Shown piece by piece: positions 3,017 to 61,920 of a stretch of 64,000 bases of DNA; positions within the stretch are counted from its first letter, which is position 1, and the number at the start of each line of letters is the position of its first letter. Below the pieces are notes generated by a model that was not told the origin of the DNA, ran no database searches, and saw only the letters and a list, made by a program, of their open reading frames with translations. The position numbers and the translations under genes are program-made. The stretch spans positions 13,616,818 through 13,680,817 of the forward strand of contig NC_081384.1 in the NCBI RefSeq assembly GCF_030684315.1, in the 5' to 3' direction. Origin of the DNA: Stegostoma tigrinum. Lineage: Eukaryota.

Positions 3017-3673
3017 ATGCTGAGCTTTCGATCTTTCCACCCTTCACGCCTGTGCCAGCAGCCTGTGTACACATTGGGGCCTGTTGAACACAGGCTCTGG
3101 GAGCCGCTTCAATGTAACGTGTGGAAACAGGTGGAAGAAGCGAGAAGGAGCATGAACTTCATGAATCGAGTCCTTGAGTTGACAGCAGAATTTTTCGGGG
3201 AAGTGCCAAAACATCAGGATAACAAGTCCGATGCTAATGGAGAAAGAAAAAGACATTCTGAAGACAAAGATGGAGATGGCTTTTCTGTGTCGCTGAATGT
3301 CCAGGGCTTTCCCCCAGAAGAACTGAGGGTGAACGTATTTGGAAGAAAAGTGCTGGTGACAGGAAAACACAAGAAGAAATGTGATGATGGCAGCGGCTCT
3401 TACAGCTACAAATATGAAGAGTTCAGGAGAGAATTCCAGCTGCCAGAGGGTGTCGATGCTGAAGTTCTTCGATGCTGTTTGTCGCAGGATGGTCGGTTAA
3501 AGGTTCAAGCCCCAAGCCTGGCATTGCCAGCTGTGAATGAACGGACCGTCCCCATCAACATCACCTCAGACACGACAACTACTCCCCGGCTCATTCCTGA
3601 CCAAGAAGCAAAGAAACAGGAGAGTGGGAGGGATGTGGGAAACAAGAAAGATGAAGAACAGATGGACAATTAA
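3017..3673 (+). CDS. hsp30: Small heat shock protein HSP30-like, copy 1 (218 aa, intronless)
   Basis: Alpha-crystallin domain (FSVSLNVQGFPPEELRV..VTGKH..YEEFRREFQLPEGVD..LSQDGRLKVQAP) and C-terminal VPINI motif. ATG in gacaATG context downstream of HSE/TATA. AATAAA at 3839. Confidence 0.92.
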   Translation: MLSFRSFHPSRLCQQPVYTLGPVEHRLWEPLQCNVWKQVEEARRSMNFMNRVLELTAEFFGEVPKHQDNKSDANGERKRHSEDKDGDGFSVSLNVQGFPPEELRVNVFGRKVLVTGKHKKKCDDGSGSYSYKYEEFRREFQLPEGVDAEVLRCCLSQDGRLKVQAPSLALPAVNERTVPINITSDTTTTPRLIPDQEAKKQESGRDVGNKKDEEQMDN

Positions 3674-5506
3674 AACTCAGTCACAATGAAGTTTTTTAGA
3701 TATTAGAATTGTTTTTATACAGTAATGAATTTCTGAGACCACGATGAAAGTATATTGCTGAAAACCAATTGTCTTCAGCTTGTCAGTATGTACTGTCCTA
3801 TTATCATCTGTGTGTTACTTACGTATGTATTTTGGGAAAATAAAGACTTTTTTAAATTTATGACAATGATTCTGCCTTTTAACCTCATAAAATGAAACTG
3901 ATACATCATTGAAGATCTTAACACTGACAGTTTCTCAGTTAAGATAAAAACATAATTTATTGAGATCAATTTAGCACAGAAAAGGATTCAACATGTGAAG
4001 ATCTGCCTAAACTCAATTCTGTCAATGAGATCAAACTGCAGTACACAGCCAGTACAGCAAACTTAAGGAATCTCCCTTCATGTTCACAATGAGCCAGCAA
4101 CAACAGCCTGCTGTCCAACACAGACACTAGTCACTGCACCACTCAGTTACTGGATGGTGGGAACTGATTTCATTGGGGTTAAAAAATCAATATAAATATC
4201 TGGGAAGTAAAGCAACTAATCATAAACAACTTCTGTAAACTTCTGGTTGAATAAAGTTATGGACAATGTTCTCAAACACAAGGAGTAGGAACAGGAGTGA
4301 GCCATTCAGCCCTTGAAGCCTGTGAGGTGATTCACTAATATCACAACTGATATGATGATAGACTTTACTCCAGTTTTCTGTCTATCACAATAACCCATCA
4401 CTCCCAGATTAACAATAATGTTACCCACACAACTGAATATATTCAAAGATGCAACATCCGGTGCTCAGTTGGAAAGAGAATTCAATTTAACGACCCAATA
4501 ACAGAAGCGGTTACTCCTGACATGAAGAGAACTGTTATTTTCAAAGAGTACTCCCTATTTCTAGATTTCCGCAAGAGCTGGTCCATCTTTTCAGCAAGCG
4601 CAATCTCAAGTTCCCTCTGAATGGCATGTTTCAATAAGGGTTCAAAGGTCAATACCAGTCAGCTGTGTAATATTCTCCTTAGCATAAGGCAGTGGCCTTG
4701 TTCCGTCATTAAATTCACTGTGTTACATTGACAAAGAAAAAAACTCATTGTATAGCTGCAAGAAACATCAACTACCATTTCAACAATCATTGATAGAAAG
4801 GAGCAATATCAGAGCAGAATCCAAAAGATGTGTTATATGTGGCACAAATGTCAAATAAACTATAGCTGTTTAGTGATCTAATATATTAAAATATGTTGTT
4901 TGTCTCAATGCAGGTAAAAAAAGGAATTATATATAAACTCGTAAAGGTATAATTTCCAGTAATTAGGATAGTAGTGTGGAGTATGTGTGTACCAGCAAGT
5001 GAGTGAGTAAGTGTGATTGGATAGCGCTTTCATAGACATGACACAGGCCTGATGGAACTAATAGCTTCCCTTTGTGGTGTGTGAGACTAAAGCTACCAGA
5101 GTGTATTATTCACTTTCTATTTTTGGAAATCTCATATCACACCATAGTTGGCCACAGGGTTTGGTAATTTTGAAAGACACAGCAGCTAAATTTCTAAATA
5201 GTCATTTTAAATATATTTTTTCTTTATAAAAAATGAGCAAAAGGCCTAAGAGAAGGAATCAATACATTCGAGAACTTAACCATGACTGTTGTGTATTTCA
5301 CTCCATTGCAAATTGATAAATGTCACTTCAATCTCATCTAAATCATTGAAAACCAAATACTGTCTCTTCTTTATGTCATGCCATGAATTGATACTTCAAT
5401 AAATCAATCCCATCTCTGAGCAATCCTCACTTTCCTGCATTGATTCTGTTTTCCACTCGGCTGTCAATCATTAACGTGTGTGTTCAGTCTGTGCAGTCAC
5501 TGCCAG

Positions 5507-5679
5507 TGAACATTCCAGAAGTCCCTGGAATTCCTCCAGTGAGTGTCACTGAGTCGAGTCATTCCTTTTTAAACGAAGCCAGAGGTGAGACGTCATTTAT
5601 TTTCAGCTCACATGTGATAAACCCAGCAAAGTTTAGCTCATTCTGGAAATGTCTGGATTCCTGGCAGTAGAATATATAA
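5507..5679 (+). promoter_or_regulatory. Distal HSE, CRE-like site, proximal HSE, TATA; copy 2
   Basis: tGAAcaTTCcaGAAgtccctgGAA; gagACGTCA; aTTCtgGAA; TATATAA 5673-5679. Confidence 0.8.
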
Positions 5680-5772
5680 GGTGTGTGTCCTGTGTGCTGC
5701 AGGAGATCAGAGACTGACGACTGGGAGATCACATCAGTCAGTTTGAGAGACGTGAGATAAGAAGCAGAGACA

Positions 5773-6432
5773 ATGCTGAGCTATCGGTCTTTCCATCCTT
5801 CACACCTGTGTCAGCAGCCTGTGTACACATTGGGGTCTGTTGAACACAGGCTCTCGGAGCCGCTTCAATGTAATGTGTGGAAACAGGTGGAAGAAGTGAG
5901 AAAGAGCATGAACTTCATGAATCGAGTCCTTGAGGAGCTGACAGCAGAATTTTTCAGGGAAGTGCCAAAAATTCGGGATAACAAGTCCAATGTTAATGGA
6001 GAAGGAAAAAGACATTCTGAAGACAAAGATGGAGATGGTTTTTCTGTGTCGCTGAATGTCCAGGACTTTCCCCCAGAAGAACTGAAGGTGAAAGTATTTG
6101 GAAGAAAAGTGCTGGTGACAGGAAAACATGAGAAGAAATGTGATGATGGCAGCGGCTCTTACAAATACAAATATGAAATGTTCAGGAGAGAATTCCAGCT
6201 GCCAGAGGATGTCGATGCTGAAGCTCTTCGATGCTGTTTGTCGCAGGATGGTCAGTTAAAGGTTCAAGCCCCAAGCCTGGCATTGCCAGCTGTGAATGAA
6301 CGGATCGTCCCCATCAACATCACCTCAGACACGACAACCACTCCCCGGCTCATTCCTGACCAAGAGGCAAAGAAACAGGAGATTGGGAAGGATGTGGGGA
6401 ACAAGAAAGATGAAGAACAGATGGACAGCTAA
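5773..6432 (+). CDS. hsp30: HSP30-like copy 2 (219 aa)
   Basis: Intact ORF with alpha-crystallin domain; AATAAA at 6611. Confidence 0.92.
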   Translation: MLSYRSFHPSHLCQQPVYTLGSVEHRLSEPLQCNVWKQVEEVRKSMNFMNRVLEELTAEFFREVPKIRDNKSNVNGEGKRHSEDKDGDGFSVSLNVQDFPPEELKVKVFGRKVLVTGKHEKKCDDGSGSYKYKYEMFRREFQLPEDVDAEALRCCLSQDGQLKVQAPSLALPAVNERIVPINITSDTTTTPRLIPDQEAKKQEIGKDVGNKKDEEQMDS

Positions 6433-6804
6433 GACTCTGTTTGAATGAACATTTAAAGATGTAAGAATTGCTGAAAAACTGCAATCAATTTCTGTCAATG
6501 TGCAATGAATATAAAATTTTAATTAAATTAAGTGTTTTGAATGTGGAAAACTGTACTGTGCTATTATCAGCAACCATTTGGATTATTTATATGTGTATGT
6601 ATAGTGAATCAATAAATAGTTTTGAAAGTTAACAATCCTGATTTTACCTTTTACTTGATCAAAACAAAAGTGATACATTACTGCTAGTCTTCACTCAAGA
6701 TCACATTATTCTCAGTTAAGGTAAAGAGAACTTTTCTGTTGAATTAAATTAAAACCCAGGGCACAAAACCACTTGTTCAAGATCTGCTTAAACCTAAACT
6801 CAGG

Positions 6805-7715
6805 TCATATAGTTTTAGAGTCATGAAGTCATGCAGCACAGAAACATACTCTTTGGAACAACTCAACAATGCCCACCAGGTATGCCAAACGTAACCAGTC
6901 CCATTTGTCTGCATTTGGACAATAACTCCACATCTCCAAATACCTTAAAATATAACTCTACCCGCATCAACTACTCTCTCTGCCAGCTCATTCCACAGAC
7001 GCACCACCCGCTGTGTGGAAATGCTGTCCCCCAGTTCCCTTTTAAATATTTCTCCTCTCGCCTTGAACCTATGCTCTCTAGTTTTGGACTCTCCTACCCT
7101 TACAATAATATCTTGACTATTCACCATATCTACACCTCTCATGATTTTATAAATTTTCATCAGGTCATCCCTCAGCGTATTGCATACTGCTCTGGTCACC
7201 ACTCAACCAGAAGAATGTGGATGCTCTGGAGACAGCACAGAAAAGGTTCAGCAGGATGTTGCCTGGTAGGGATGATTTTACCCATGAAGAAATCTTGAAT
7301 AGATGGGCTTGTTGTCACTGGAACATAGGAGGTTAAGGAGTGACCTGATTGAAGTTTATAAGGTTGGGAATGCCATGAACAGAGTGGAAAGTATCAGGAC
7401 TTTTCTCCCTGGATGAAGGGCTCAATTGCTGAGGCGCACAGGTTCAAGGTGGAGAGGCGGAGATTAATAGAGAAGTGTGTTGCGTGTTTTTCATAAAAAG
7501 GGTGGTGAGTGGCTGGAGATGGGTTGCCACAGGAGGTGGTGGAAGTGGACACAATAGCAGCATCGCAGAATGTCCTGGATGAATACAGGGCGAGGAAGGG
7601 AATAGAGGGATACAGACACTGTACGTGAAGACAGTTAGAGTGTGGAAGGGGAAAATACATCAAGGCATGCTTGGAGGTTGAAGGGCCTGTTCCAGTGCTG
7701 TATTGTTCATTGTTC
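6805..7715. mobile_element. Two degenerate CR1-type LINE 3' fragments in opposite orientation (minus ~6805-7200, plus ~7180-7715)
   Basis: Minus ORF LRDDLMKIYKIMRG..TREHRFK..FSTQRVVRLWNEL is typical CR1 ORF2 C-terminus. The plus fragment has the same motifs. Homologous fragments recur in every A/B spacer. Confidence 0.75.
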
Positions 7716-9008
7716 AATCCAAGCGCATGGAAAATAACAGCCAAACCTATCCAGCCTGTCCATACACGTCATCTTGCAATACCGGCAAGAAACTTGTAAC
7801 ATTTTCTGAATACAGGTCAGTCAAGGATATCAAACTATTCTTCAAAGAGCATCCATACAGAGTTCTGCACATGTCAATCTCTTAGACATGGGCTGCAGAT
7901 TCACAGTCATCAGTAACAACAGCTTGTCGTCCAACTCAGACACCAGATTGTACACCACTCAGATAACTGAGGGTGGAAAGCTCATTCATCGTGTGTTAAA
8001 TGGCCTTGTGCCTATTGGGGAGTGTAGGCATTGCTGCTTGCATCAGAAGCAGCTTTTGTGAAGCTTCTTTTTCGATAACGTTAAGGTATTATTCTGGTGA
8101 CCAAAATGAATAGGAACAGGAATAGGCAATTTAGCCAATCACGCTCTCTTCTCTATTCCATAAGGTCAGCAAGAATTTAAATAAAGAATGAAGGAATCCT
8201 GCCTCCTGGATAACTGAACATTAAACCCTAACTTGTACACAGACCTGAATAATTCAATGCTGCAGCTTCCACTGCTCACTGGGGAAAAGATATCAATCCA
8301 ATAACTCTCTGAAAGGAGACAATTCCCCTGATATGAACCATAGATGAGCGAGCCCTAATTTTTAACCTGTGGTCCCGACTCCAGGATTGAACGATGGGAC
8401 ACATACTTTCTGCATCAACAATGTCATGACCCTCTGAAACTAATGTTTTAATTAATGCCCTGATTCCACCGCATCAGGGAGGTGTCTAATACTTCCCTCC
8501 ACAACACCCAGCAGTTTGCTTCCATCAGGACATTTACTGGATCAAGCTGACTGACAAACAAGTGTTTTGCTGTACAGAGAGAAATATTAACAATATCAAT
8601 GGTCCTCGACTGGATGTGGGCAATGCCACATGACATCATTAGACAGTCTTTAAATGCAATGCAAGAGTCACAGAGACTTTCAACTATGTTGAAACTAAAA
8701 TATAGTTGGTTGTTCTTCCTCAGTTGTGCTGTTTCTTTTGAACTAGAAAGGAAGATGTGAATGCAAAGAAGGAACGGATCCAAAGGCTTCTCACAAATTG
8801 GGAATGTACGTATGCAAGCAAAAGGAGAATTTGAAGAGCTTTGGGAGAATATCATAGAAAATGAAAGGAATTGGATAGCGCTTTGAAAAAGACAAATCTG
8901 GCTTTGTGGAATGATTGGCCTCATTTGCTGCTCTGCAGATCTGAAGCAAATGTTGTGCATTCTTTGCATTATAAAGTGGAAACCCGAAATCAAATGCATA
9001 CTTGACAA

Positions 9009-9158
9009 GCAGCATCAGAGGAGCAGGAAAGCTGACGTTTCGGGTCTAGGCCCAAAACGTCAGTCTTCCTGCTCCTCTGATGCTGCTTGGCCTGCTGTGT
9101 TCATCCAGCTCTACACCTTGTTATCTCAGATTCTCCAGCAACTGCAGTTCCTACTATG
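9009..9158. mobile_element. Palindromic mini-Penelope (pLTR-only) insertion
   Basis: Inverted arms centred on gggtctaggccc. 19-bp TSD tcaaa(t/a)gcatacttgacaa at 8990-9008 and 9159-9177. Absent from paralogous spacers. Confidence 0.8.
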
Positions 9159-9553
9159 TCAAAAGCATACTTGACAACAGGGTTTTATAATATTGAAGGA
9201 CACAGGAGTTTCATTTGTCAGTCTTTCACTTTTCAAATAACTTTTTCACTACCACCAATGAGGTACTTGCCTTGGGGACGGATTCAACACTTCATATGAA
9301 TTATATAAAGCAATTTGCATAGCACTCTACCTCAGACTGAAAAACAGCAGTTCAGTCTCAAGGAAGTAATTGTAAAAAGTTATGTAATAAAATACTAATG
9401 ATAACTTATCGTTCTCTCATGACATGATTGACTCTTAAAAGCAATTAGAAAGCTTTATTAATCTAACAATCCTCACATTCCTGCACAGGCTCTGCTTTCA
9501 GCTCAGCTGTCAATCATTAACATTGCTCCTCCCAGCTGTGCAGCCACTGTCTG

Positions 9554-9725
9554 TGAACATTCCAGAAGTCTGTGGAATTCCTCCAGTGGGTGCACTGAGT
9601 CAAGTGATTCTTGTTTCAAGTTAGCCTGAGATGAGACGTCATTTATTTTCAGCTGACATGTGATAAACCCAGCAAAGTTTAGCTCATTCTGGAAATGTCT
9701 GGATTCCTGGCAGTAGAATATTTAA
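9554..9725 (+). promoter_or_regulatory. HSE/CRE-like/HSE/TATA promoter, copy 3
   Basis: GAAcaTTCcaGAA distal, TTCtgGAA proximal, TATTTAA 9719-9725. Confidence 0.8.
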
Positions 9726-9818
9726 GGTGTGTGTCCTGTGTGCTGCAGGAGGTCAGAGACTGACGACTGGGAGATCACATCAGTCAGTTTGAGAGACGTG
9801 AGAGAAGAAGCAGAGACA

Positions 9819-10478
9819 ATGCTGAGCTATCGGTCTTTCCACCCTTCACACCTGTGTCAGCAGCCTGTGTACACATTGGGGTCTGTTGAACACAGGCTCT
9901 GGGAGCCGCTTCAATGTCATGTGTGGAAACAGGTGGAAGAACGGAGAAAGAGCATGAACTTCATGAATCGAGTCCTTGAGGAGCTGACAGCAGAATTTTT
10001 CAGGGAAGTACCAAGAAGTCAGGATAAGAAACCTGACACTATCGGAGAAGGTAAAGTACAATCCGAGGAGAAGGATGGCGATGGGTTTTCTGTGTCCCTG
10101 AATGTGCAGCGCTTCTCTCCAGAAGAACTGAGGGTGAAAGTATTTGGAAGAAAAGTGCTGGTGACAGGAAAACACGAGGCGAAATGTGATGATGGCAGCA
10201 GCTCTTACAGCTACAAATATGAAGAGTTCAGGAGAGAATTCCAGCTGCCAGAGGATGTCGATGCTGAAGCTCTTCAATGCTGTTTGTCACAGGATGGTCG
10301 GTTAAAGGTTCAAGCCCCAAGCCTGGCATTGCCAGCTGTGAATGAACGGACCGTCCCCATCAACATCACCTCAGACACGACAACCACTCCCCGGCTCATT
10401 CCTGACCAAGAGGCAAAGAAACAGGAGAGTGGGAGGGATGTGGGGATCAAGAAAGATGGAGAACATATGGACAGTTAA
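9819..10478 (+). CDS. hsp30: HSP30-like copy 3 (219 aa)
   Basis: Intact ORF with alpha-crystallin domain. Confidence 0.92.
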   Translation: MLSYRSFHPSHLCQQPVYTLGSVEHRLWEPLQCHVWKQVEERRKSMNFMNRVLEELTAEFFREVPRSQDKKPDTIGEGKVQSEEKDGDGFSVSLNVQRFSPEELRVKVFGRKVLVTGKHEAKCDDGSSSYSYKYEEFRREFQLPEDVDAEALQCCLSQDGRLKVQAPSLALPAVNERTVPINITSDTTTTPRLIPDQEAKKQESGRDVGIKKDGEHMDS

Positions 10479-11667
10479 GAATTTGTCTGAATGAATGTCG
10501 AAACATGTAGTAATTGTTGCAACGCAGCAAACAATGTCTGTCAATGTACACTGAAAATAAAAATTTTGTTGTGTTAACTGTCTTGAGCATGAATAATGGT
10601 ACTGTGCTATTATAAACAATTCATGTGGATTATTTATACATGTTTGCATATTGAATCAATAAATAGTTTTGAAAGTTAACAATCCTGATTTTGCCTTCTT
10701 ATTTGATCAAAACAAAAGTACTACAATACTACAAAGAATCTTCACTCAAACTTACATTATTTTCAGTTAAGGTAAAGAGACCTTTTATGTGGGATTAAAT
10801 TAAAACAGAGAGCAGAAAATCAGTTGGTCAAGATTGGCCCTGATCTAAACTCAGATTATGACTAAATATAGTCATAGAGTCATGAAGTTATGCAGCACAG
10901 AAACATACCCTTTGTTCTAACTCAACCATGACCAGCAGGTATGCCAAACGTAACTCGTCCCATTTGCCTGTGTTTGGTCCATATCTTGCTCAAATTTTCC
11001 TATTCATGCACATTTCCAAATATCTTTAAATATTCTAACTGTACCTGCACCTACCACGTTCTCTGGCAGCTCATTCCATTCTCACACTACCCGCTGTGTG
11101 GAAAAATTGTCCCTCAGGTCCCTTTTAAAAAGTTCCTGTTGCCCCTTGAACCAATGCTCTCGAGCTTTGGACTCCCCAACCATTGGAATAAGATCTTGAT
11201 GATTCACCTTTTCTATGCCTCTCATGATTTTAGAAAACTTCGTAAGGTCACCCCTCAGCATATTGCGTACAGTTCTTGTCACCACACCAGCAGAAGGACT
11301 CAGATGCTTTGGAGAGGATACAGAAAGGCTTTTCCAGGAAACTGCCTTGTATGGGCAATTTTAGCCCAGAGTGGAAGGACAAAATATGTCAGCACAGGTT
11401 TGGAGAGCTGAGGGGCCAGGTCCTGTGCTGTATTGAGCATTGTTTGTCAGGAGCTCCTGGAAACAAAAAGTCCTCGCCTATCGAGCCTCTCCCTACAACT
11501 CAATCCTCTCGTGTTAGTAACATCCTCATAAATTGTTTGTGTATCTAGGTCAGTCAAAGATATTAAATTCATGTTGAGGGACCATCATTGAAGAGCTTTG
11601 TGCACCTCAATCGCACAGATGTTTGCAGATTTACAAATCATCAGCAACAAGGGCTTGTCATCCAACT

Positions 11668-12640
11668 CCCTCAGGGTATGTCTTCAGCCCAACCATCATC
11701 AGCTGCTTCATCAATGACCTTCCCCGCCATTGTCAGGTCAGAAGTGGGAATGCTCACCTACGATTGTGCAGTTTTCAGCACCGTTTGCGATTTCTCAGAT
11801 ACTGAAGCAGGCACATTCAAATGCAGCAAGATCTGGACAATCTGGCTTGGCCTGTCAAATGGCAAGTGACATTTGTGCAACACAAATGCCAGCCTATCAC
11901 CATCACCAATAAGAGCCATTGTAACCACTGCTCCTTAACATTCAATGGTGGTGCCATGACCTATACCTCACTATCAACATCCTGAGCCTTATCATTGACC
12001 AGAAACTCAACTCGATTCATCACATAAACACAGTGGCTACAAGAGCAGTCCAGAAGCTGGGAATGCTATGGCAGGAAACTCTCTCCTGACTCCTCAAAGC
12101 CTGTCCACCATCTACAAGGCATGTGTCAGGGCTGTGACGGAATGCCCTCCACTTGCCTGGATGAGTTCGGCTCCAACAACACATGAGAAGTTTGACACCA
12201 TCCAGCACAAAGCAGCGCACTCGATTCGCACCACATCCATAAGCACCCACTCTGTCCAACCCCCACGCTCAGTACCAGCAGTGTCTAATATCTGCAGGAT
12301 GTGCTGCAGAAATTCACTAAAGATCCTCAGACAGCACTTTCCAAACACACATCCACTTCCATCCAAGGGCAGCAGACAAATGGGAACACCACCACCTTCA
12401 ACTTCCCCTCCCAGCCCCTCATCATCCTGACTTGGAAATATATCGGTGTTCCTTCACTGTCATTGGATCAAAATCCCAGAATTGTCTCCCAATTGGTCAT
12501 GTGGGTGAATCCACGGCAGGTGGAGCGCAGATGTTCAAGAAGGCATCTCACCACCACCTTCTCAAGGGAAACCAGGTACGGGCAAGAAATGCTGGCCAGA
12601 CTGCCACTCCCACAGCCCACAAAAGAGTGGAAAATATAAC
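11668..12640 (+). mobile_element. Degenerate CR1/L2-group LINE 3' fragment (RT C-terminus + 3' tail), spacer A3
   Basis: PQG..SCFINDLP..QQDLDNI..KWQV..HLLTPQSLSTIYKA.VR..MEY.PLAW RT motifs, frameshifted. Empty site seen at ~7937. Confidence 0.8.
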
Positions 12641-14056
12641 TGAGGCACCAGGCTGTATACCACTTCTTTACTGGATGGTGGAAAGTACGTTTACTGTGGG
12701 TTAAATGATCTTGTGCCTCTCGGGGAGTGTGAGGAAAGCTGACTGCATCAAAAGCAGCTTTTATCAAGTTTCTGTTCCCGTAATATTAATCATACTATTC
12801 AATAGGAATAAACAATAGGAACAGCAGCAGGCAATTTAAACAACAAACTCACTTCTCTATTTCATGTGATCACCAATGATTTAACCATAGACTGAAGAAA
12901 TCCTGCCTCCCTCTAAACAATCACTCCCCTTTTCAACCAGAACCTGTATATGGGGAAGAGGTAACTAACTTGTAATTCTCTAAAAAGAGACAATTGCCCG
13001 GATAAGAACCTCAGATGGGCAAGACCTTAATTTAAAACTGTGTTCCCGACACCAGGACTTCTGACCGATGTGACACATCCTTCCAGCATCAACCATGTCA
13101 AGACCCTCTGTCTCTAATGTTTCAATTAACAACCCTGATTCCACAGCATCAGGAAGGTGTCTAATACTTCCTTCCACATCACTCAGCAGTTTGCTTCCAC
13201 CAGAACATTTACTGCATCACACTGACTGACAAACAAGTGTTTGCTGTACAGAGAGAAATATTTACAATATCAATGGTCCTCAATTGGATGTGGGCAATGC
13301 CACATGACATCCATTAGACATTCTTTAAATGCAACGCAAGAGTCACAGAGACTTTCAATGATGTTGAAACTAAAATAGAATTAGTTATTCTTCTGTTGTG
13401 CTGTTTCTTGTGGACTTGGATGTATGTTGTGAATGCAAAGAGGGAGAAGATCCAAGGACTTCTCACAAACTGGAATTGGACATGTACTTGCAAAAGAAGA
13501 ATTTGCAGAGCTTCGGGGAAAAAACATTGGAGGTGCAAGGAATTGGACTGCGCTTTGAAAGAGCTGAATCTGGCCTGGTGGACTGATTGGCCTCATCTGT
13601 TGCTCTGCAGATCTAAAGCTGTTGTTGAGCATTCTTCGTTTTATAAAGTGCAGATCCTACATCAAACACCTTATCAGCAACAGGGTTTTATAACATTGAA
13701 GGACACAACAACTTCATGTTTAAGTCTTTCGCTTTTCAAACTCATTCTTCATCATCAGCAGGGAGGTGTTCTCCTTCAGGACAGATTCAACAGTTTGTTC
13801 AAAAAGTACAAATCTAGTTGTATTTCATTCCACCTGAAGCTGAAAAGTAGCACTTCAATCTCAAGGAAGTAATTGGAAACAGTAATGTTACAAAACACAA
13901 ACACTGCATCTTCATTCTGTATTGACATGATTGACTCTTAAAAGAAATTAAAAATCTTTTGTCATCTAACAATCCTCACTTTCCTGCCCAGACTCTGCTC
14001 TCCGCTCAGCTGTCATTCATTAACATTGCTCCTCCCAGCTGTGCAGTCACTGCCTG

Positions 14057-14229
14057 TGAACATTCCGGAAATCCCTGGAAATCCTCCAGTCGGTATCACT
14101 GTGTCGTGTCATTCCTATTTAAAGGAAGCCTGAGATGAGACGTCATTTATTTTCAGCTCACATGTGATAAACCCAGCAAAGTTTAGCTCATTCTGGAAAT
14201 GTCTGGATTCCTGGCAGTAGAATATATAA
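14057..14229 (+). promoter_or_regulatory. HSE/HSE/TATA promoter, copy 4
   Basis: GAAcaTTCcgGAA distal, TTCtgGAA proximal, TATATAA. Confidence 0.8.
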
Positions 14230-14322
14230 CGTGTGTGTCCTGTGTGCTGCAGGAGATCAGAGACTGACGACTGGGAGATCACATCAGTCAGTCTGAGAGA
14301 CGTGAGAGAAGAAGCAGAGACA

Positions 14323-14994
14323 ATGCTGAGCTATCGGTCTTTCCACCCTTCACGCCTGTGCCAGCAGCCTGTGTACACATTGGGGTCTGTTGAACACAGG
14401 CTCTGGGAGCCGCTTCAATGTAATGTGTGGAAACAGGTGGAAGAAGCGAGAAAGAGCATGAACTTCATGAATCGAGTCCTTGAGGAGCTGACAGCAGAAC
14501 TTTTCGAGGGAATTCCAAGAAGTCAGGATAACAAACCTGACAGTATCGGAGAAGGTAAAGTACAATCCTTGGAGAAGGATGGAGATGGGTTTTCTGTGTC
14601 CCTGAATGTGCAGCACTTCTCTCCAGAAGAACTGAGGGTGAAAGTATTTGGAAGAAAAGTGCTGGTGACAGGAAAACACGAGGCGAAATGTGATGATGGC
14701 AGCGGCTCTTACAGCTACAAATATGAAGAGTTCAGGAGAGAATTCCAGCTGCCAGAGGATGTCGATGCTGAAGCTCTTCAATGCTGTTTGTCGCAGGATG
14801 GTCGGTTAAAGGTTCAAGCCCCAAGCCTGGCATTGCCAGCTGTGAATGAACGGACCGTCCCCATCAACATCATCTCAGACACGACAACCACTCCCCGGCT
14901 CATTCCTGACCAAGAGGCAAAGAAACAGGAGAGTGGGAGGGATGTGGGGAACAAGAAAGATGGAGAACATATGGACAACAAAGACTTTGATTGA
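14323..14994 (+). CDS. hsp30: HSP30-like copy 4 (223 aa)
   Basis: Intact ORF ending ..EHMDNKDFD. Confidence 0.92.
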   Translation: MLSYRSFHPSRLCQQPVYTLGSVEHRLWEPLQCNVWKQVEEARKSMNFMNRVLEELTAELFEGIPRSQDNKPDSIGEGKVQSLEKDGDGFSVSLNVQHFSPEELRVKVFGRKVLVTGKHEAKCDDGSGSYSYKYEEFRREFQLPEDVDAEALQCCLSQDGRLKVQAPSLALPAVNERTVPINIISDTTTTPRLIPDQEAKKQESGRDVGNKKDGEHMDNKDFD

Positions 14995-16162
14995 ATGAAC
15001 GTTTTAATGTATAGGAATTATTGCAACGCAGCAATCAATATCTGTCAATGTACACTGAAAATAAAAATTTTGTTGTATTAATTGTCTTGAGCATAGATAA
15101 GGGTACTGTGCTATTATAAACATTCATGTGGAGTATTTATAAAGAAGTATGCATATTGGATCAATAAATAGTTTTGAAAGTTAATAATCCTGATTGTGCC
15201 CTCTTATTTGATCAAAACAAAAGTAATACATTACTGATAATCTTCATTCAAAATTACATTATTTTCAGTTAAGGTAAAGAGACCTCCTATGTGGGATTAA
15301 ATTAAAACACAGGGCAGAAAATCAGGTGGTCGAGATTTGCCTCAATCTAAACTCCGACTCATATAGTCATCGAGTCATGAAGTTATGCAGCACAGAAACA
15401 TATCCTTTGGTCCAACCTGACCGTGCCCACCAGGTATGCCAAACGTAACTCGTCCCATTTGCCTGCGTTTGGTACATATCTCGCTCACCTTTTCCTATTC
15501 ATGCACATCTCCAAATATCTTTAAATATTCTAACTGTACCTGCACCTACCACGCTCTCTGGCAGCTCATTCATTTCTCACAATACCCGCTGTGTGGAAAC
15601 ATTGTCCTTCAGGTCTCTTTTAAAAAGTTCCGGTTGCTGCTTGAACCTATGCTCTCTAGCTTTGGGCTCCCAAACCCTTGGAATAAGATCTTGGCGATCC
15701 ACCTTTTCTGTGCCTCTCATGATTTTATAAACTTCCGTAAGGTCACCCCTCAGCATATTGCATACAGTTCGTGTCACCACACCTGCAGAAGGACTCAGAT
15801 ACTTTGGAGAGGATACAGAAAGGTTTTACCAGGATTTTACCTTGGATGGGCAATTTTAGCCCAGAGTGGAAGGACAAAATGTGTCAGCACAGGTTTGGAG
15901 AGCTGAGGGGCAGGGTCATGTGCTGCATTATGCGATGTTCATACGGAGCTGGTGGAAACAAAAAGTCCTCGCCTATCGAGCCTCTCCCTACAACTCAATC
16001 CTCTCATGTAAGCAACATTCTTCCAAATTTTTTCTGTCTCTAGTACAGTCGAAGATATTAAATTCATGTTGAGGGACCATCATTGAAGTGCTTTGTGCAC
16101 ATCAATCGATCAGATGTTTGCAGATTTACAAATCATCAGCAACAAGGGCTTGTCATCCAACA

Positions 16163-17135
16163 CCCTCAGGGTATGTCTTCAGCCCAACCATCTTCAGCTG
16201 CTTCAACAATGACCTTCCCCGCCATTGTCAGGTCAAAAGTGGGAATGTTCACCTACGATTGCGCAGTTTTCAGCACGGTTTGCGATTTCTCAAATACTGA
16301 AGCAGGCATATTCAAATGCAGCAAGATCTGGACAATCTGGCTTGGCCTGTCAAATGGCAAGTGGCATTTGTGCAACACAAATGCCAGCCTATCACCATCA
16401 CCAATAAGAGCCATTGTAACCACTGCTCCTTAACATTCAATGGTGGTGCCATGACCTATACCTCACGATCAACATCCTGAGCCTTATCATTGACCAGAAA
16501 CTCAACTTGATTCACCACATAAACACAGTGGCTACAAGAGCAGGCCAGGAGCTGGGAATACTACGGCAGGAAACTCTCTCCTGACTCCTCAAAGCCTGTC
16601 CACCATCAACAAGGCACGAGTCAGGGCTGTGACGGAATACCCTCCACTTGCCTGGATGAGTCCGGCTCCAACAACACATGAGAATTTTGACACCATTCAG
16701 CACAAAGCAGAGCACTCGATTCGCACCACATCCATAAGCACCCACTCCGTCCAACCCCCACGCTCAGTACCAGCAGTGTCTAATATCTGCAGGATGTGCT
16801 GCAGAAATTCACTAAAGATCCTCAGACAGCACTTTCCAAACACACATCCACTTCCATCCAAGGGCAGCAGACAAATGGGAACACCACCACCTTCAACTTC
16901 CCCTCCAAGCCCCTCATCACCCTGACTTGGAAATATATCGGTGTTCCTTCACTGTCATTGGATCAAAATCCCAGAATTGTCTCCCAAGTGGTCGTGTGGG
17001 TGAATCCACGGCAGGTGGTGCGCAGACGTTCAAGAAGGCATCTCACCACCACCTTCTCAAGGGAAATGAGGTACGGGCAAGAAATGCTGGCCAGACTGCC
17101 ACTCCCACAGCCCACAAAAGAGTGGAAAATATAAC
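16163..17135 (+). mobile_element. Same CR1/L2-group LINE fragment, spacer A4
   Basis: Paralog of 11668-12640. Confidence 0.8.
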
Positions 17136-48356: not shown

Positions 48357-48441
48357 CACAATAACCACCCTCCGGCTTATTTCTGACCAAGAGGCAAAGA
48401 GACAGGAGAGTGGGAAGGATGTGGGGAACAAGAAAGATGGA
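48357..48441 (+). pseudogene. hsp30: Orphan 3' fragment of another hsp30 copy
   Basis: ccggcttatttctgaccaagaggcaaagagacaggagagtgggaaggatgtggggaacaagaaagatgga matches the CDS tail. A diverged 3' UTR and flank follow to ~49310. Confidence 0.8.
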
Positions 48442-53842: not shown

Positions 53843-53932
53843 AAGATAATAAAATGTGAGGCTGGATGAACACAGCAGGCCAAGCAGCATCTTAGGAGCA
53901 CAAAAGCTGACGTTTCGGGCCTAGACCCTTCA
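53843..53932 (-). mobile_element. Penelope pLTR fragment
   Basis: Nearly identical to the left arm of 46457-46655. Confidence 0.75.
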
Positions 53933-54056
53933 ATTCCCTAAGATTAGGAAAACAAGATTCGGCATTACAATATCCATAAATTTTCTAAATTCACAATAAA
54001 TTGGTATTCAATGTCTATTTTCCCTTTCCTGTTCCCCACTTCCTTCCCACTGTCCT

Positions 54057-54167
54057 CACAGACAGTAAGAACTTTCTGACGTAGGTCCTGACCCAAAACA
54101 TCAAATTTCCTGTTCCACTGATGCTGCCTGAGCTGCTGTGTGCCTCCAGCTCCACACTGTGTTATTT
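54057..54167 (+). mobile_element. Old Penelope pLTR fragment inserted into the 3' end of hsp30 copy 12
   Basis: TSD cttcccact(g/c)tcct at 54043-54056 and 54168-54181. It supplies the stop codon of copy 12. Confidence 0.75.
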
Positions 54168-54785
54168 CTTCCCACTCTCCTGTTTCTTTGTCTCTTGGTC
54201 AGGAATGAGCCGAGGAGTGGCTGTCGTGTCTGAGGTGATGTTGATGGGCACGGTCTGTTCATTCACAGCTGGCAATGCCAGGCTTGGGGCTTGAACCTTT
54301 AACCGACCATCCTGTGACAAACAGCATCGAAGAGCTTCAGCATCGACATCCTCTGGCAGCTGGAATTCTCTCCTGAACTCTTCATATTTGTAGCTGGAAG
54401 AGCCACTGCCATCATCACATTTCTTCTTGTGTTTTCCTGTCACCAGCACTTTTCTTCCAAATACTTTCACCCTCAGTTCTTCTGGGGAGAAGTGCTGCAC
54501 ATTCAGGAACACAGAAAACCCATCTCCATCCTTCTCCAAGGATTGTCCTTTACCTTCTCCGATACTGTCAGGTTTGTTATCCTGAATTTTTGGTACTTCC
54601 CTGAAAAATTCTGCTGTCAGCTCCTCAAGGACTTGATTCATGAAGTCCATGCTCTTTCTCGCTTCTTCCACCTGTTTCCACACATGACATTGAAGCGGCT
54701 CCCAGAGCCTGTGTTCAACAGACCCCAATGTGTACACAGGCTGCTGACACAGGTGTGAAGGATGGAAAGACCGATAGCTCAGCAT
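54162..54785 (-). CDS. hsp30: Inverted HSP30-like copy 12 (207 aa, tail shortened by TE insertion)
   Basis: Open frame with complete alpha-crystallin domain, ending QESGKK* inside the TE. Confidence 0.8.
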   Translation of the reverse strand: MLSYRSFHPSHLCQQPVYTLGSVEHRLWEPLQCHVWKQVEEARKSMDFMNQVLEELTAEFFREVPKIQDNKPDSIGEGKGQSLEKDGDGFSVFLNVQHFSPEELRVKVFGRKVLVTGKHKKKCDDGSGSSSYKYEEFRREFQLPEDVDAEALRCCLSQDGRLKVQAPSLALPAVNEQTVPINITSDTTATPRLIPDQETKKQESGKK

Positions 54786-54918: not shown

Positions 54919-54926
54919 GAGCTAAA

Positions 54927-55635
54927 GCATTTTTTGATTTAGTTTGTTTTGTTATTGTCACATATACCTAGGTACACTGAAGAGTTTTGCTTTGCGTACA
55001 ATACAGGCAGATCATACTATACAAAGTGCATTAGGGTAATAGAACACAGCCAGAAATACCATGTTACAGCTGCAGAGTTGGTGTACAGGTAGTAAGATCA
55101 GCATTAAGTTTGAAATTTGAGAGGCCCATTCAAGAACCTAATAACAACAGGGAAGAAGCTGTTCTGAATCTGTTGGCATATGTTTAAGCAGTTGTGATTT
55201 CTTCCCAATGGAAGAGGTTGGAAGAGATTATAAATAGGCAGGGAGGGAACATTGATGATGTTGGCTGCCTTCTCAAAGCAGCAAGAAGTATGGATGGGGT
55301 CAATGGACAGAAGGTTGGCTTGTGTGACGGACTGGGCTGTGTTCACAATTCTCTGAAGTTTCTTACAGTTCTGGGCAAAGCAGTCGCCGTACCAACACAT
55401 GGTGCATCCTGGTAGAATGTTTTGTACGAAGCTTCTATAAAAATTAGTAAAAGTCTTTACGACGTGCTGAAATTCCTTCATCTCTTGTGGAAGTAGAGGC
55501 GTTGTGCTTTCTTGACAATAGCGTAAAGGTGGGTGGTGCAGGAAAGATTGTTGGTAATCTTCACTCCTAGGAGCTTTACAGTCTCAACCATCTGCCTCAG
55601 CACCACTGATGAAGACAGGGGCAGGCCCTCCTCCT
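54927..55635 (-). mobile_element. Rex1/Babar LINE 3' fragment inserted in the promoter of copy 12
   Basis: ORFs LGVKITNNLS..KKAQRLYF and TNFYRS..CWYG.C....KKLQRIVNTAQ..LPLGR..NSFFP..IRFLN are typical of the Rex1/Babar C-terminus. Confidence 0.75.
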
Positions 55636-56748
55636 TGCTTCCTTTGCTCTGTTTATCATGTCTGTGCTTAAAATAGATGAAATGTCTCAGCTTGTTTATT
55701 TTAAACAGGAACAAATTAACTCAGTGACACACACTGTCAGATCCAGCTTTTTCTGGAATCTATTCAGCACAGATGGGAGGAGTGGCATCAACTTTTGAGA
55801 TATCAATTCTTGTAAATTAAGAACTTCGACTGGAAATTGACATTCAGGCCAGTTTGTTGTGAAATCTATTACATTTCCAAAACTATCCCCTACAGAGCCA
55901 TTAATTCATTTGCTTTGAGCACATGTTTCCGTGCAATGTGTTGCCAAAATGGCTCATTATTATACAATTTTACAACCGTGATTACTTTTATTAATGGCTT
56001 CACTTTGCGCACAGTAACTTAGCATTAATTTCCATAAAACATACAAACTTGAAACAGTATTTGTATGGTGGAGGAACTATAACATTCACTTAATTAAATT
56101 CAAGTTAAGACTTCCACACTAGCTGTGGCACTGCTTACTGCTGTCGGTAGATAGTCTATGTAGAAATGGTAGTACTTAAACTGTCCTCAAAATAATCAGG
56201 GAAGGGAATCAGGAAATGAAGAACTGAAACAATCGGAGCACTTAGACTAGCGGATAATGATGACTCCATGTATGTGCCTGTCACAGTTATTTTTAAATAT
56301 TAGACGAGATTAATAAATAGATGCGGAGAGTTCAGAAATCAGAGTTGAGCAAATCTGCAGCGTCACGGTACTACCAATAAAAGTCAAGTCAACTCATTTA
56401 TTGGTTAATTATTAGTGTATGGCATGCTGTCAGCTGTTGGAAAGAGCTGCTGACTCAGGGCATTAAGTTAGAAAGTGCAGACTATAAACTAGGCAGAACA
56501 TTCTGCTTCTGATTGATATCAATACAACTCACAGACCAATATCTGTATTCCTGCTGATGTAATCCGCTGAGACAGCAGTCCCAACAATGAAGACTTCAAA
56601 ATAACAATAATCTAAGGATGATTCTTGAAGACTTTTAATGATAGGGCTGTGACTATTTCGTTTGGCAGCTTGCTCCATTGTGGAATTGTCCTTGGGGGAG
56701 AAGAGAAGAGTTGATACACTGCATTAGAAACAAATTGTGTCCTTGCAG

Positions 56749-56880
56749 AGATAGTAGGAACTGCAGATGCTGGAGAATCTGCGATAACAAGGTGTAGAGC
56801 TGGATGAACAGCAGGCCAAGGGGCACCAGAGGAGCAGGAAGGTTGACAGTTCAGGCCTAGACCCTAGCCTTCCTCTTCCC
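56749..56880 (-). mobile_element. Penelope pLTR fragment
   Basis: Matches 478-600; perfect 14-bp TSD ttgtgtccttgcag at 56735-56748 and 56881-56894. Confidence 0.8.
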
Positions 56881-57847: not shown

Positions 57848-59631
57848 GATAACAGTGTGGAGCTGGATGAACACAGCAGGCCAAGCAGCATCTCAGGAGC
57901 ACAAAAGCTGACATTTCAGGCCTAGACCCTTCATCAGAGAGGGGGATGGGGTGAGGGAACTGGAATAAATAGGGAGAGAGGGGTGGCGGACCGAAGATGG
58001 AGAGAAAAGAAGATAGGTGGAGAGGAGAGTATAGGTGAGGAGGTAGGGAGGGGATAGGTCAGTCCAGGGAAGAGGGACAGGATGAGGTGGTAGGTAAGAA
58101 ATGGAGGTGTGGCTTGAGGTGGGAGCAAGGGATGGGTGAGAGAGAGAACAGGTTAGGGAAGCTGAAACAGGCTGGGCTGGTTTTGGGACGCAGTGGGGAA
58201 AGGGGATGAACTGGGCTGGTTTTGGGATGCAGTGGGGGATGGGGGAGATTTTGAAGCTTGTGAAATCCACATTGATACTATTGGGCTGCAGGGTTCCCAA
58301 GCAGAATATGAGTTGCTGTTCTTGCAACCTTTGGGTGGCATCATTCATGGGCCTCCTGCAGTGCCACATGGACATGTTATCCGAGGAATGGGAGGGGGAG
58401 TTGAAATGGTTCGTGACTGGGAGGTGTAGTTGTTTATTGCGAACCGAGCAGAGGTGTTCTTCAAAGCGGTCCCCAAGCATCCGCTTGGTTTCCCCAATGT
58501 AGAGGAAGCCACACCGGGTGCAATGGATACAATATACCACGTTGGCAGGTGTGCAGGTGAATATCTGCTTAATATGGAAGGTCATCTTGGGGCCTGGGAT
58601 GGGGGTGAGGGAGGAGGTTTGGGGGGAAGAGTAGCACTTCCTGCGGTTGCAGGGGAAGGTGCTGGGTGTGGTGGGGTTGGAGGGGAGTGTGGAGCGGACA
58701 AGGGAGTTGCGGAGAGAGTCTTCTCTCCAGAAGGCAGACAAGGGTGGGGATTGAAATATGGCTTGGGTGGTGGGGTCGGATTGTAGATGGCGGAAGTGTC
58801 AGAGGATGATGCGTTGTATCCGGAGGTTGGTGGGGTGGTATGTGAGAACAAGGGGGATCCTCTGGGGGCGGTTGTGGCGGGAGCAGGGTGTGAGGGATGT
58901 GTTGCAGGAAATGCGGGAGATGTGGTCAAGGGCATCCTCGAACACTGCGGGGGGAAAGTTGCGGCCCTTGAATAACGTGGACATCTGGGATTTGCGGGAG
59001 TGGAATGCCTCATCCTGGGTGCAGATGCGGTGGAGGCGGAGAAATTGGGAATAGGGGATGGAATTTTTGCAGGATGGTGGGTGGGAGGAGGTGTATTCTA
59101 GGTAGCTGTGGGTGTCAGTGGGTTGAAATGGACATCAGTTTCTAGCTGGTTACCTGAGATGGAGACGGAGACTGAGACGGAGACTACTTCCCCCCACTGC
59201 ATCCCAAAACCAGCCCAGCTCGTCCCCTCCCTCCACTGCATCCCAAAACCAGCCCAGCCTGTCTCCGCTTCCCTAACCTGTTCTTCCTCTCACACATCCC
59301 TTCCTCCCACCTCAAGCCACACCTCCATTTCCTACCTATCACCTCATCCTGCCTCCTTGACCTGTCCGTCTTCCCTGGACAGACCTATCCCCTCCCTACC
59401 TCCTCACCTATACTCTCCTCTCCACCTATCTTCTTTACTCTCCATCTTCAGTCTGCCTCCCCCTCTCTCCCTATTTATTCCAGTTCCCTCTCCCCATCCC
59501 CCTCTCTGATGAAGGGTCTAGGCCCAAAACGTCAGCTTTTGTGCTCCTGAGATGCTGCTTTGCCTGCTGTGTTCATCCAGCTTCACACTTTGTTATCTTG
59601 GATTCTCCAGCATCTGCAGTTCCCTTTACCA
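57848..59631 (-). mobile_element. 5'-truncated Penelope-like element (Neptune type) with GIY-YIG domain and inverted pLTR
   Basis: ORF 57893-58741(-) NVVYCIHCTRCGFLYIGETKRMLGDRFEEH (GIY-YIG). Inverted pLTR ~59186-59631. 15-bp TSD aagattaactcccta at 57833-57847 and 59632-59646. Confidence 0.88.
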
Positions 59632-60694
59632 AAGATTAACTCCCTAAGGAGGTGCAAAGACAGCAGCTAAACTTACTTTGTGGTGAATAGTTGCTTCTTT
59701 CAAACTACCTGCAATATTAAATAGACTCTAGTTAAAAATTCCTTAAATCAATAAAGTAGCTTTAACATATAACTAAAGTATAAAAGTATTAGTGGAAAAG
59801 CATTTAAAGTTAATTGCGAAAGTTAGTTAGCCTTAGGAAATGCCTTATCTTATGCCCTGAGCAAGACAGATTGTTTACACCCCGTTAATTACAAAGTGCG
59901 AACAGTAGAAGTAGCTGTACAAATTTACATTTTACAACTAACTTTATAATGGAAATTAATCTTACAGCAATTAGATAAAACTAAACAGTCTTTTGTATTC
60001 TTACAAATATAATTAGGACAGTGGGAAATATTAGCGGAATGGCTAAATTTGATAAAAGAAAGCACACGTAGTACAATGAATAATAGAATTCACACTGGCC
60101 TTAGAGATAAGCAACCCGAGACAGATCCAATGGAATGTAGCCAATAACTTTAGAATGTAAATAAATAGGATGCATAGAAAGATCCCAAATCTTAGAGATT
60201 ACAAGGTCTGTTAAACACCACAAGATCATGGGAGCATGGGGCTGTCCACAGGAATGCCCATAATTGATTAGGTGTCCCACAGGGCTGGGTGTATGGATTA
60301 AGGGGTAAGGATAATGATTACACTATATTTGATTATTATAACAGAAAATGTATTAAATGTTGTATTTTCGTCTGAATTGAGCCAAAAGTTTAGGGAAAAA
60401 TCATTTTCTCATGTCGAGGCTATATTTGAGGAATATCCTTTCGCCCACTCCCTGCATTAACTGATTTCTGCTTGAATAAGCATCTTCCGTTTGCCTGAAC
60501 CCTGCCTGCCTCCTGAGTGTTTGACACTGTTCAGGGTGGTACACTCCACAGGTCACTCCTACAACTGTCTAGAAGAACACCAAGGTTGTTTCCACTCACT
60601 AAGATCTATGCACAAATGCCACAGCTACTGGCAAAGTCAGGGAAGATTAGTTCAGGTCGCGCTACTATAGAAAGTATATTACTAAAGGAGAAAA

Positions 60695-61165
60695 ATGGTG
60701 CAGAAAAGATTTACTAGGATACTACCTAGACTGGAAAGCTTGAGTTAGGAGGAGAGGTTGGATAGGCTGGGACCTTTTCTCCCCTGGATTGTGGGTGGCG
60801 TGGTAGAGGTCTATAAAATCAGAAGAAGCATAGATAAAGGTAGATAGCCAACAGCTTTTCCTCAGGGCAGGGGAGTCAAAAACTAGAGGATAAAGGTTCA
60901 AGGTGAAAGGGAACAGATACAAAAAAGGGTACAGGGGCAATTTTTTCCACAGTGGGTCCAGAATGGGCTGCCAGAAGTAGCGGTGGAAGCGACTACAATT
61001 TTGTCATTTAAGAAACATTTAAACAGGTACATGAATTGGATAGGTATGGTAGGAAATGGACCAAATGCAGGCGAAATGTGATTAGGTTAATTGTGAAAAC
61101 TGGGTGGCATGTGTAAGTTGGCCTGAAGGGCCTGTTTCCATGCTGTAGGCCTCTGACTCTATCCG
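60695..61165 (+). mobile_element. CR1 LINE 3' fragment
   Basis: gtgcagaaaagatttactaggat..gaggttggataggctggg..ggttcaaggtga..gaagggcctgtttccatgctgta..tgactcta, typical CR1 end. Confidence 0.7.
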
Positions 61166-61529
61166 ATGCACAATTAAATGTGGAAATTGGGAAGCTGCTA
61201 CCCAAGACGAATTGCATCATGAGCTTTGGGAAGCAGCATCTTGTTACCTGGCTCTCCATTTAAAAACCTCAGGCAGTGTACAGTTCCTGTGCTTGCACAA
61301 TAAATCCAAAGTACATCCACCACACAATGTGATAAAATTTCATTCCTTATCCAAATATTTTTACATCAACTTGCCTGTAATGGGACTGAAAATTTGCAAT
61401 GTCATTCTTTTGAGTTTGAGATGTTGTTGGATTTCATTTAAATTAGGGCTTTGTTTTGAAACATTTTCTCTCTCAATCTTTCTATGAATGTCTCTATTAC
61501 TTTTCTTATACTTTGGCATCAAGTTCATT

Positions 61530-61920
61530 GCTCTCAAGTGCACTTCAATGCTTGTCTTTGTTAAAACATATTTTTGGAACAGAGACCAAGGAAATCAGGC
61601 CAATAGTCCTGACTGTAATGAGTAGCGTAAAAGACAACTGGAAAACAAGGCCAGAGCTGGTTTATCTCTATATCCGGGCATCCAGTGATTGTGCCTGGAA
61701 GAATTAAAGTTAAAAGTATTTGAAAGAAAAGTACCGACGAGCAGAAAATACAAGAAGCAAAAAGCGTTGGAAGTAGCAAATCTTATAACTACAAATGTGA
61801 ACACTCTGAAGAGAATTCCAGTTGTTAGGAGATGTCAATGATGTAGTGCTGTTTGTCACAGAACAGTCGGTTTATGTTTCAAACCCAATGTTTGGCACTG
61901 CCAGCTGTGAACGAATGACG
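61530..61920 (+). pseudogene. hsp30: Highly decayed hsp30 remnant
   Basis: gaagaattaaagttaaaagtatttgaaagaaaagt..ctacaaat..gagaattccag..tgctgtttgtcaca..ggcactgccagctgtgaacgaa is collinear with the hsp30 CDS, with indels. Confidence 0.75.

Follow-up and report, generated by a model that had tools for sequence, protein, structure and literature searches.

An hsp30 array in Stegostoma tigrinum, probably old, homogenised by gene conversion and reshaped by unequal crossing-over

A stretch of 64,000 nucleotides from the genome of Stegostoma tigrinum (assembly GCF_030684315.1, contig NC_081384.1, positions 13,616,818 to 13,680,817 of the forward strand) carries a large cluster of intronless hsp30 genes. 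This whole stretch is referred to here as the window, and all positions given are counted from its first letter. The cluster is likely to be an old elasmobranch hsp30 array whose copies are held alike by gene conversion and whose units come and go through unequal crossing-over. In our best reading, a large array would be the usual state in sharks and rays, such that the youngest copies reflect turnover and not a one-off adaptive expansion. The array would thus be a new elasmobranch case of a mode of gene-family evolution that is already known, with no new mechanism or species-specific adaptation shown.

Searches of the window with one copy as the query (blastn and tblastn) retrieved 12 near-complete hsp30 genes within approximately 52 kb, 11 on the forward strand (g1 to g11) and one on the reverse strand (g12), along with two remnants, in agreement with the count made in a first-pass annotation of the sequence. 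Seven of the genes are full-length. These comprise the older and more divergent copies g1 (3017-3673, 218 aa) and g2 (5773-6432, 219 aa), g3 (9819-10478, 219 aa), and the 223-aa genes g4 (14323-14994), g5 (18811-19482), g8 (32756-33427) and g10 (42208-42879), of which g4 has an A-type tail without a frameshift and the other three have B-type tails. The remaining five are disrupted. A shared 2-nt deletion near codon 187 has replaced the charged tail of g6 (23767-24351), g7 (28261-28845) and g9 (37714-38298), which are consequently 194 aa in length and end in NHSPAHS; g11 (47324-47993), with a B-type tail of the EPTDSKVFV kind, has a nonsense TGA at codon 81 (47564-47566); and the inverted g12 (54162-54785, reverse strand, ATG at 54785) is cut by an insertion to 207 aa. 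The first remnant (48354-48441, forward strand) preserves the 3' end of another copy, which abuts the beginning of the spacer downstream of g11, and would be the product of a deletion that took a spacer and the 5' part of a gene. The second (61593-61915, forward strand) is old and decayed, with 72% identity over 227 nt, stops and frameshifts. The nonsense copy, the two remnants and the interrupted g12 lie beside young copies, a pattern of birth-and-death evolution that the annotation had likewise recognised.

The eight spacers between g3 and g11 were found to be of two types, arranged in the previously reported order A-A-B-A-A-B-A-B. All on the forward strand, and named after the gene that each follows, these are A3 (10519-14322), A4 (15023-18810), B5 (19511-23766), A6 (24467-28260), A7 (28961-32755), B8 (33456-37713), A9 (38414-42207) and B10 (42908-47323). 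The A spacers are 3.79-3.80 kb in length and 94.4-98.7% identical to each other, the B spacers are 4.26-4.42 kb and 97.9-98.4% identical, and identity between the two types is 80.5-81.6%. One A and one B unit together recur with a period of 9.44-9.46 kb. Spacer A4 is 97.1-97.6% identical to A6, A7 and A9, and A3 is a mosaic, in that its first 1.2 kb or so differs by about 10% from the other A spacers and its middle by 1-4%. Genes g1 and g2 and their spacers fall outside the A/B pattern, the s2 spacer (6473-9818, forward strand) being an older relative of both types (74-76% identity to them). The six youngest spacers are only 1.3-2.1% apart, which supports the earlier claim of a recent amplification.

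Identity profiles in 100-nt bins along pairs of genes were used to locate the part of each unit that is shared across the two types. Genes g9 and g10 are 94-99% identical from -300 to +599 (approximately codon 200) and 85% identical in the tail bin, whilst outside this core identity drops to 69-88% across the 3' flank, to 58% past +1000 and, on the upstream side, to 63-69% above -400. Three pairs of A-tailed and B-tailed genes behaved similarly, with 91-99% identity in the core, 83-85% in the tail and 62-69% upstream of -400. A core of approximately 0.9 kb, which runs from around -300 in the promoter across the alpha-crystallin domain to around codon 200, is hence set within much older flanks. 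A four-gamete test found 338 of 595 pairs of the 35 informative sites to be incompatible, and neighbouring sites were compatible 25 times relative to 14.7 expected, a value that was reached in none of 10,000 permutations. This combination of a homogenised coding core, divergent flanks and mosaic sites is a feature of concerted evolution. Since the core is the only long sequence common to unlike neighbours, recombination is expected to take place there.

Two genes appear to record such exchanges directly. Gene g7 is a hybrid, its upstream side resembling that of g8 (96-99%), that is, the 5' side found after an A spacer, and its downstream side resembling those of g6 and g9 (98-100%). A crossover inside the gene that gains an A unit or loses a B unit would be expected to leave such a hybrid. 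The promoter of g4 switches from the A-following to the B-following type near -230. The first-pass annotation had tied each C-terminal type to the spacer that follows it, and in general this link stands. It fails in its particulars for g6, g7 and g9, in which EHMD is present only in another reading frame, and for g11, which has no B spacer after it. The two C-terminal types are made up of the opening letters of the downstream flank, which has diverged, and for this reason each goes with the spacer behind it. The link is thus best seen as a by-product marking the end of the homogenised core, and not as a sign of two kinds of gene. Spacers A3 and A4 were also observed to hold older segments (about 10% and 4% from the other A spacers, within 10.4-11.6 kb and 14.9-17.3 kb, respectively) beside young ones, indicating that exchange breakpoints lie inside spacers too.

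The inverted copy provides a separate line of evidence. A 756-nt core of g12, from about -140 to codon 206, is 95.0-97.0% identical to g3-g11 and 91.9-93.1% identical to g1 and g2, whereas its flanks beyond two insertions are mostly 62-79% identical to those of other copies, with pieces of 26-34 letters at 82-88%. The insertion at codon 206 is a repeat-derived segment of 111 nt (54057-54167, reverse strand; whole feature 54043-54181) between 14-nt direct repeats (54168-54181 and 54043-54056, one mismatch), behind which the decayed original end of the gene can be read as GNRKG (53991-54056, reverse strand). At the other side, a LINE-like tail (54926-55640) sits at approximately -147 of g12 and parts it from its distal promoter. 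An inverted copy is not homogenisable by simple unequal crossing-over, hence the young core of g12 points to gene conversion; the gene is most simply understood as an old copy with a young core that ends at the insertions, as conversion would leave it.

A 207-aa protein of the whale shark (row P0007) ends in ESGKG, relative to ESGKK in g12 (54162-54185); the start of the repeat reads AGA-TA in two copies within the window, and a single transition suffices to turn this into either K or G. The g12 protein is 93% identical to that of g11 and 85% identical to the 207-aa whale shark protein, which is itself 89% identical to its own paralogue. This suggests that the cut in g12 may predate the split from the whale shark and that the cores have been homogenised separately since, though the whale shark protein is annotated as an isoform, and splicing in the gene model could account for its end. 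Another five homologues, from the horn shark, the white shark, two catsharks and the epaulette shark (P0012, P0027, P0030, P0032 and P0035), end in NKKG or NKKA. Four of these are closer to a long-tailed copy of the same species (86-89%, their best match) than to the other short-tailed proteins (70-88%), and the fifth has no same-species row in the comparison set. These forms may possibly represent one old positional orthologue that was converted in each lineage.

The nearest named proteins to those of the array are whale shark proteins labelled 'heat shock protein 30C-like' (85-86% identity), followed by those of bamboo and epaulette sharks. Among the homologues retrieved, the white shark contributed 12 rows, the stingray Hemitrygon nine and Heptranchias six, each set with one longest contig, and six rows were the window's own proteins. 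Database annotations of other elasmobranch hsp30 sets accordingly resemble the present one in having many copies per species, one chromosome-scale contig and a mostly lineage-wise grouping. Cluster member counts (27 for basking shark, 26 for little skate) may mix species and were not used as copy numbers. A tree was inferred from 68 rows, of which 56 are named homologues and 12 are proteins of the window, the six duplicate rows from the window having been left out. Lineage labels changed 23 times on this tree compared with 49.6 times when shuffled, demonstrating that copies cluster mostly by lineage. The g3-g12 proteins lie on a branch with 98% support, 11 of the 12 rows of the white shark fall on one branch together with basking shark, and five of the six sevengill rows lie on another 98% branch. 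Paralogues within a lineage are therefore closer to each other than to copies in other lineages, again as in concerted evolution.

Sequence reads of a relative, termed here organism B, were used to place these events in relative time. Organism B has diverged by approximately 6.9% in flanking DNA (88 of 1268 letters, in four pieces), and other pieces of it match an A spacer and the end of a B spacer at 88-89%. Young units that are 1.3-2.1% apart are, relative to this 6.9%, species-specific and younger than the split. The difference between A and B spacers (approximately 19%) would predate the split, and the array would in turn predate that difference, all of these ages being relative. A 235-nt contig from the gene core of organism B had a depth of 166 compared with 8-13 for three flank contigs, approximately 13- to 20-fold, as measured on one contig of a run of guessed kind. 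The array had been put forward as a lineage-specific expansion; in terms of size this is apparently not so, as the 12 distinct copies of the white shark, the nine of the stingray and the core depth of organism B, at approximately 13-20 times single-copy level, point to comparably large arrays in relatives as far as protein rows and core depth reach.

A course of events can be proposed from these observations. Each of the intronless small heat-shock genes would have its own promoter of the heat-shock factor (HSF) type and be heat-inducible, and the encoded proteins, judging by their family, would act as ATP-independent holdase chaperones. Gene conversion would keep the cores alike whilst tails, 3' untranslated regions and spacers drift apart, and unequal crossing-over with breakpoints in the core would duplicate or delete whole gene-spacer units. 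In the latest rounds the A+B unit of approximately 9.45 kb would have been multiplied, single-unit gains or losses leaving the hybrid genes g7 and g4 and the A-A pairs, with damaged copies carried along and the extra copies having a near-neutral fate. Several points weigh against this account. The B5, B8 and B10 spacers are star-like, with 33, 32 and 44 private sites, and so do not settle the order of events, and A3 is nearest to A6 over approximately 1.6 kb, a trace that a larger duplication could also leave. The tree was built by a quick method and many of its inner forks are open; members of the homologue clusters may stem from other species; and the arrays elsewhere are known from protein rows and the depth of one contig, not from locus DNA. 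Contig depth is a rough measure and not strictly copy number, and the two samples used for it below may be the assembly's own source. Weak purifying selection may also be compatible with the data, given the few variants, the low power and a ratio of nonsynonymous to synonymous change (pN/pS) of 0.60 in the alpha-crystallin domain.

The alternatives may be divided into those that concern the structure of the array and those that concern its purpose. Assemblers are known to go wrong on tandem arrays, and haplotypes or reads could have been stacked into false tandem copies. We give this next to no credence, as whole spacers are never closer than 98.7%, each unit has private variants, and three B and five A units are impossible from two haplotypes of one. 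Read depth is also contrary to it. In a comparison covering 4 of 19 runs, X1 and X2 being two samples of the same species, depth was taken as the word depth of single contigs over that of three single-copy contigs per run (baseline spread 0.76-1.31), and the figures cover all ten repeat pieces. The relative depths were 2.9, 2.9, 3.4, 2.8 and 1.9 in X1, for assembly multiplicities of 3.4, 3.3, 3.4, 2.6 and 2.0, and 4.0, 3.9, 2.5, 3.3 and 2.2 in X2, for multiplicities of 3.9, 2.9, 2.2, 2.7 and 2.0. Both samples thus follow the assembled multiplicity, which fits five A and three B units and indicates that the copy number is true. With depths near those of the assembly in both, there was no clear sign of a copy-number difference between the two samples by contig depth, and the probable variability among individuals that had been suggested is not shown. 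A second structural alternative, in which the A-A-B triplet (13.95 kb) is the higher-order unit and was duplicated as a block, is very improbable. It draws on a 20-kb alignment at an offset of 13,946 with 96.2% identity, and on the affinity of A3 and A6 already mentioned. However, A3-A6 (95.2%) and A4-A7 (97.1%) identities are both below those of A6-A7, A6-A9 and A7-A9 (98.5-98.7%), and the promoter types of g4 and g7 differ. Moreover, 15 shared sites group A3 and A4 against A6, A7 and A9, the latter three being united by the frameshift as well, relative to four sites that group A3 with A6 and two that group A4 with A7. These counts largely refute duplication of the triplet and leave A+B as the duplicated unit, its spread by unequal crossing-over, as first proposed, being supported by the 9.44-9.46 kb period together with the site counts. 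The simplest history would be one in which the A+B pair was multiplied, with single-unit gains or losses.

With regard to purpose, the first-pass annotation had proposed an expansion for chaperone dosage. A lineage-specific expansion selected for a higher chaperone dose in this species accords with the species-specific young units and with the retention of the proximal heat-shock element-like site in all 12 copies, yet we consider it quite unlikely. Equal or larger copy sets are present in the white shark, the stingray and others, gene-core depth is high in organism B, and three of the six genes g5-g10 carry the tail frameshift. Measured over codons 1-184, pN/pS was 0.92 within the g3-g12 set and 0.50 when g1/g2 were compared with the others. 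The 75 distinct variants included 57 nonsynonymous and 18 synonymous changes (p 0.58 against neutral), and those of the alpha-crystallin domain 20 and 9, respectively (p 0.27). With pN/pS at about 0.9, frameshifted copies among the youngest genes and 5 of the 12 copies disrupted, selection for dosage is unsupported. The linker before the alpha-crystallin domain (codons 60-84 of g3-g12) was observed to be the most variable part of the protein (pN 0.117, pS 0.078; 21 nonsynonymous to 4 synonymous, not significant).

Slightly less likely again is that the A+B unit is kept for two complementary subunits, a long-tailed form and the 194-aa form, that tune oligomer size or activity. The frameshift, present in three young copies, does spare the alpha-crystallin domain and the VPI motif, which aligns with the IPI of alpha-B-crystallin, and the TATA-like box is TATATAA in the short-tailed g6 and g9 relative to TATTTAA in g5, g8 and g10. 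An intronless mRNA should in general also escape junction-dependent decay. Conversely, the new tail has one charged residue in 13, compared with 14-15 charges in the 38-42 residues of intact tails, and it was found in none of the 56 named homologues; g4, of the same type, lacks the frameshift; and the spread of a single mutation to three copies can be explained without selection. By the title of the study concerned, the carboxyl end of Xenopus Hsp30C is reportedly needed for stability and chaperone activity. Loss of the tail also impairs alpha-B-crystallin, according to the part of the source available (PMC2002509). Copies g6, g7 and g9 are most likely weak or dying. A broader possibility, which we regard as unlikely, is that sharks and rays share a very old and undescribed array of fixed architecture. 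It would consist of a tandem block and a short-tailed member in a conserved position (here the inverted g12, elsewhere the proteins ending in NKKG or NKKA), and neighbours would have overwritten the core of that member independently in each lineage after the shark orders diverged. Short-tailed forms would meanwhile have arisen time and again and been retained to regulate oligomer size, namely the NKKG type, which is old, the g12 form that an insertion cut and that the whale shark also has, and the new 194-aa frameshift form. The evidence for this reading consists of the protein ends.

The assignment of the genes to the hsp30 family, made in the first-pass annotation, was borne out. The open reading frames are continuous and intronless, and all three copies scanned against Pfam matched PF00011 (HSP20) over residues 85-182 with E-values of 4e-18 or better. 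A match to alpha-B-crystallin was obtained at an E-value of 1e-17. The C-terminal IXI/V motif and charged tail are present in the intact copies, the tail being lost in g6, g7 and g9 and shortened in g12. The named homologues are all elasmobranch and, bar two with uninformative or odd labels, are annotated as heat shock protein 30(C)-like or beta-11-like; the top protein cluster was labelled beta-11-like (0.95), and the tree is without frog or teleost sequences. Taken together, these are small heat-shock proteins whose subfamily is most likely HSP30/hspb11.

A perfect three-unit heat-shock element (HSE) at -265 was identified in 9 of the 12 promoters (g2-g10), including one at 5508 upstream of g2, and g11 has one mismatch there. 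These nine are copies of one element and not independent events. The distal HSE is absent at g1 and g12. All 12 promoters contain a TATA-like box at -100, preceded at -132 by an HSE with one mismatch, and no perfect HSE was detected in the 17.2 kb outside the array. The promoter of g5 (18546-18717, forward strand), with a perfect HSE at -265, an HSE with one mismatch at -132 and the TATA-like box at -100, exemplifies the layout shared by g2-g11. Such promoters, with both HSE and TATA elements, are of the HSF1 type known for the HSP30/hspb11 subfamily. The TATA-like box reads TATATAA in g1, g2, g4, g6, g9, g11 and g12 and TATTTAA in g3, g5, g7, g8 and g10, the variant occurring in all three intact B-tailed genes. 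In one read set (X5), contigs covered a B-type tail and its 3' flank (42817-42935) and the 3' flank of g11 (48164-48321, with no differences); contigs fell on gene bins and on none of several spacer bins, and loose ends matched only the 3' flanks of g3 and g2. The library kind of X5 is not on record, and although it resembles an RNA library, neither a level of expression nor silence can be read from it. If X5 is RNA, this would hint that several copies, including g11, are transcribed.

The hsp30 genes of Xenopus and teleosts are clustered. Vertebrate members of the HSP30/hspb11 subfamily (Xenopus hsp30C/D, fish hsp30, chicken HSP25 and HSP30CL) are like those of the shark array in their PF00011 domain, intronless reading frame, length of approximately 220 aa and multi-gene nature, whereas the shark array has twelve copies in 52 kb and a two-unit spacer pattern. 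In the parts of the sources available, the subfamily is described in frogs, fish and birds, with chicken HSP25 lacking an intron (PMC5101479), and Xenopus HSP30 as a chaperone that is stress-induced via HSF1 (PMC3511540). The closest parallel in mode is the hsp70 cluster of the fly Stratiomys singularior, of which the available part of the account (PMC3071340) describes four copies in tandem, spaced 4.7-5.9 kb apart, along with an inverted fifth. Gene conversion has homogenised their coding regions, homology reaches only some 200 bp into the 5' flank, the 3' UTRs have diverged, and the spacers contain transposon debris. Tandem and inverted copies, converted cores, divergent flanks and debris are thus common to both. 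The Stratiomys cluster differs in gene family and phylum, in having five copies, and in the dominance of silent changes compared with a pN/pS of approximately 0.9 in the shark, and that part of the account (PMC3071340) contains no young two-gene unit. The Drosophila Hsp70 and amylase paralogues match in mode of evolution but occur as small inverted pairs, in contrast to the long tandem array of the shark and its turnover of units (PMC3924832). No published description of a shark hsp30 array was found in the literature searched, which covers few subscription journals.

The array offers a clean vertebrate case of gene conversion combined with unequal crossing-over, in which the ends of tracts can be read at gene tails and at transposon insertions. 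Elasmobranchs are known for slow sequence change. Studies of heat stress in sharks that count 'hsp30' reads or copies would be confounded by 12 near-identical genes, five of them damaged, and a gene-family 'expansion' of hsp30 called in a single shark species is likely to be mistaken.

The spacers and flanks otherwise contain debris. A scan of 150 stop-free frames of at least 62 aa, drawn from one A spacer, one B spacer, s1, s2 and the flanks, yielded no Pfam-recognised gene; the only Pfam matches were to GIY-YIG (E-value 2e-4, within 57.9-58.8 kb) and, weakly, to RVT_1 (E-values 0.009 and 0.036), the rest being sub-threshold. The weak RVT_1 matches within B10 (44412-44842) are retroelement debris, and this spacer also has an extra segment of 212 nt and a 55-nt gap relative to B5 and B8. 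No short tandem repeats were detected in the window besides one 16-mer pair. Two decayed elements, at 771-1665 and 57893-59097 (reverse strand), are related (73% alike over 1.1 kb), one of them containing the GIY-YIG match, and are presumably Penelope-like. A short high-copy repeat, often in inverted pairs, occurs at 509-605, 1901-1994, 9006-9127 and 46458-46616, with more copies at 53846-53927, 56784-56846, 57852-57892 and 59502-59596. This repeat family is the source of both the insertion in g12 and the extra segment of B10.

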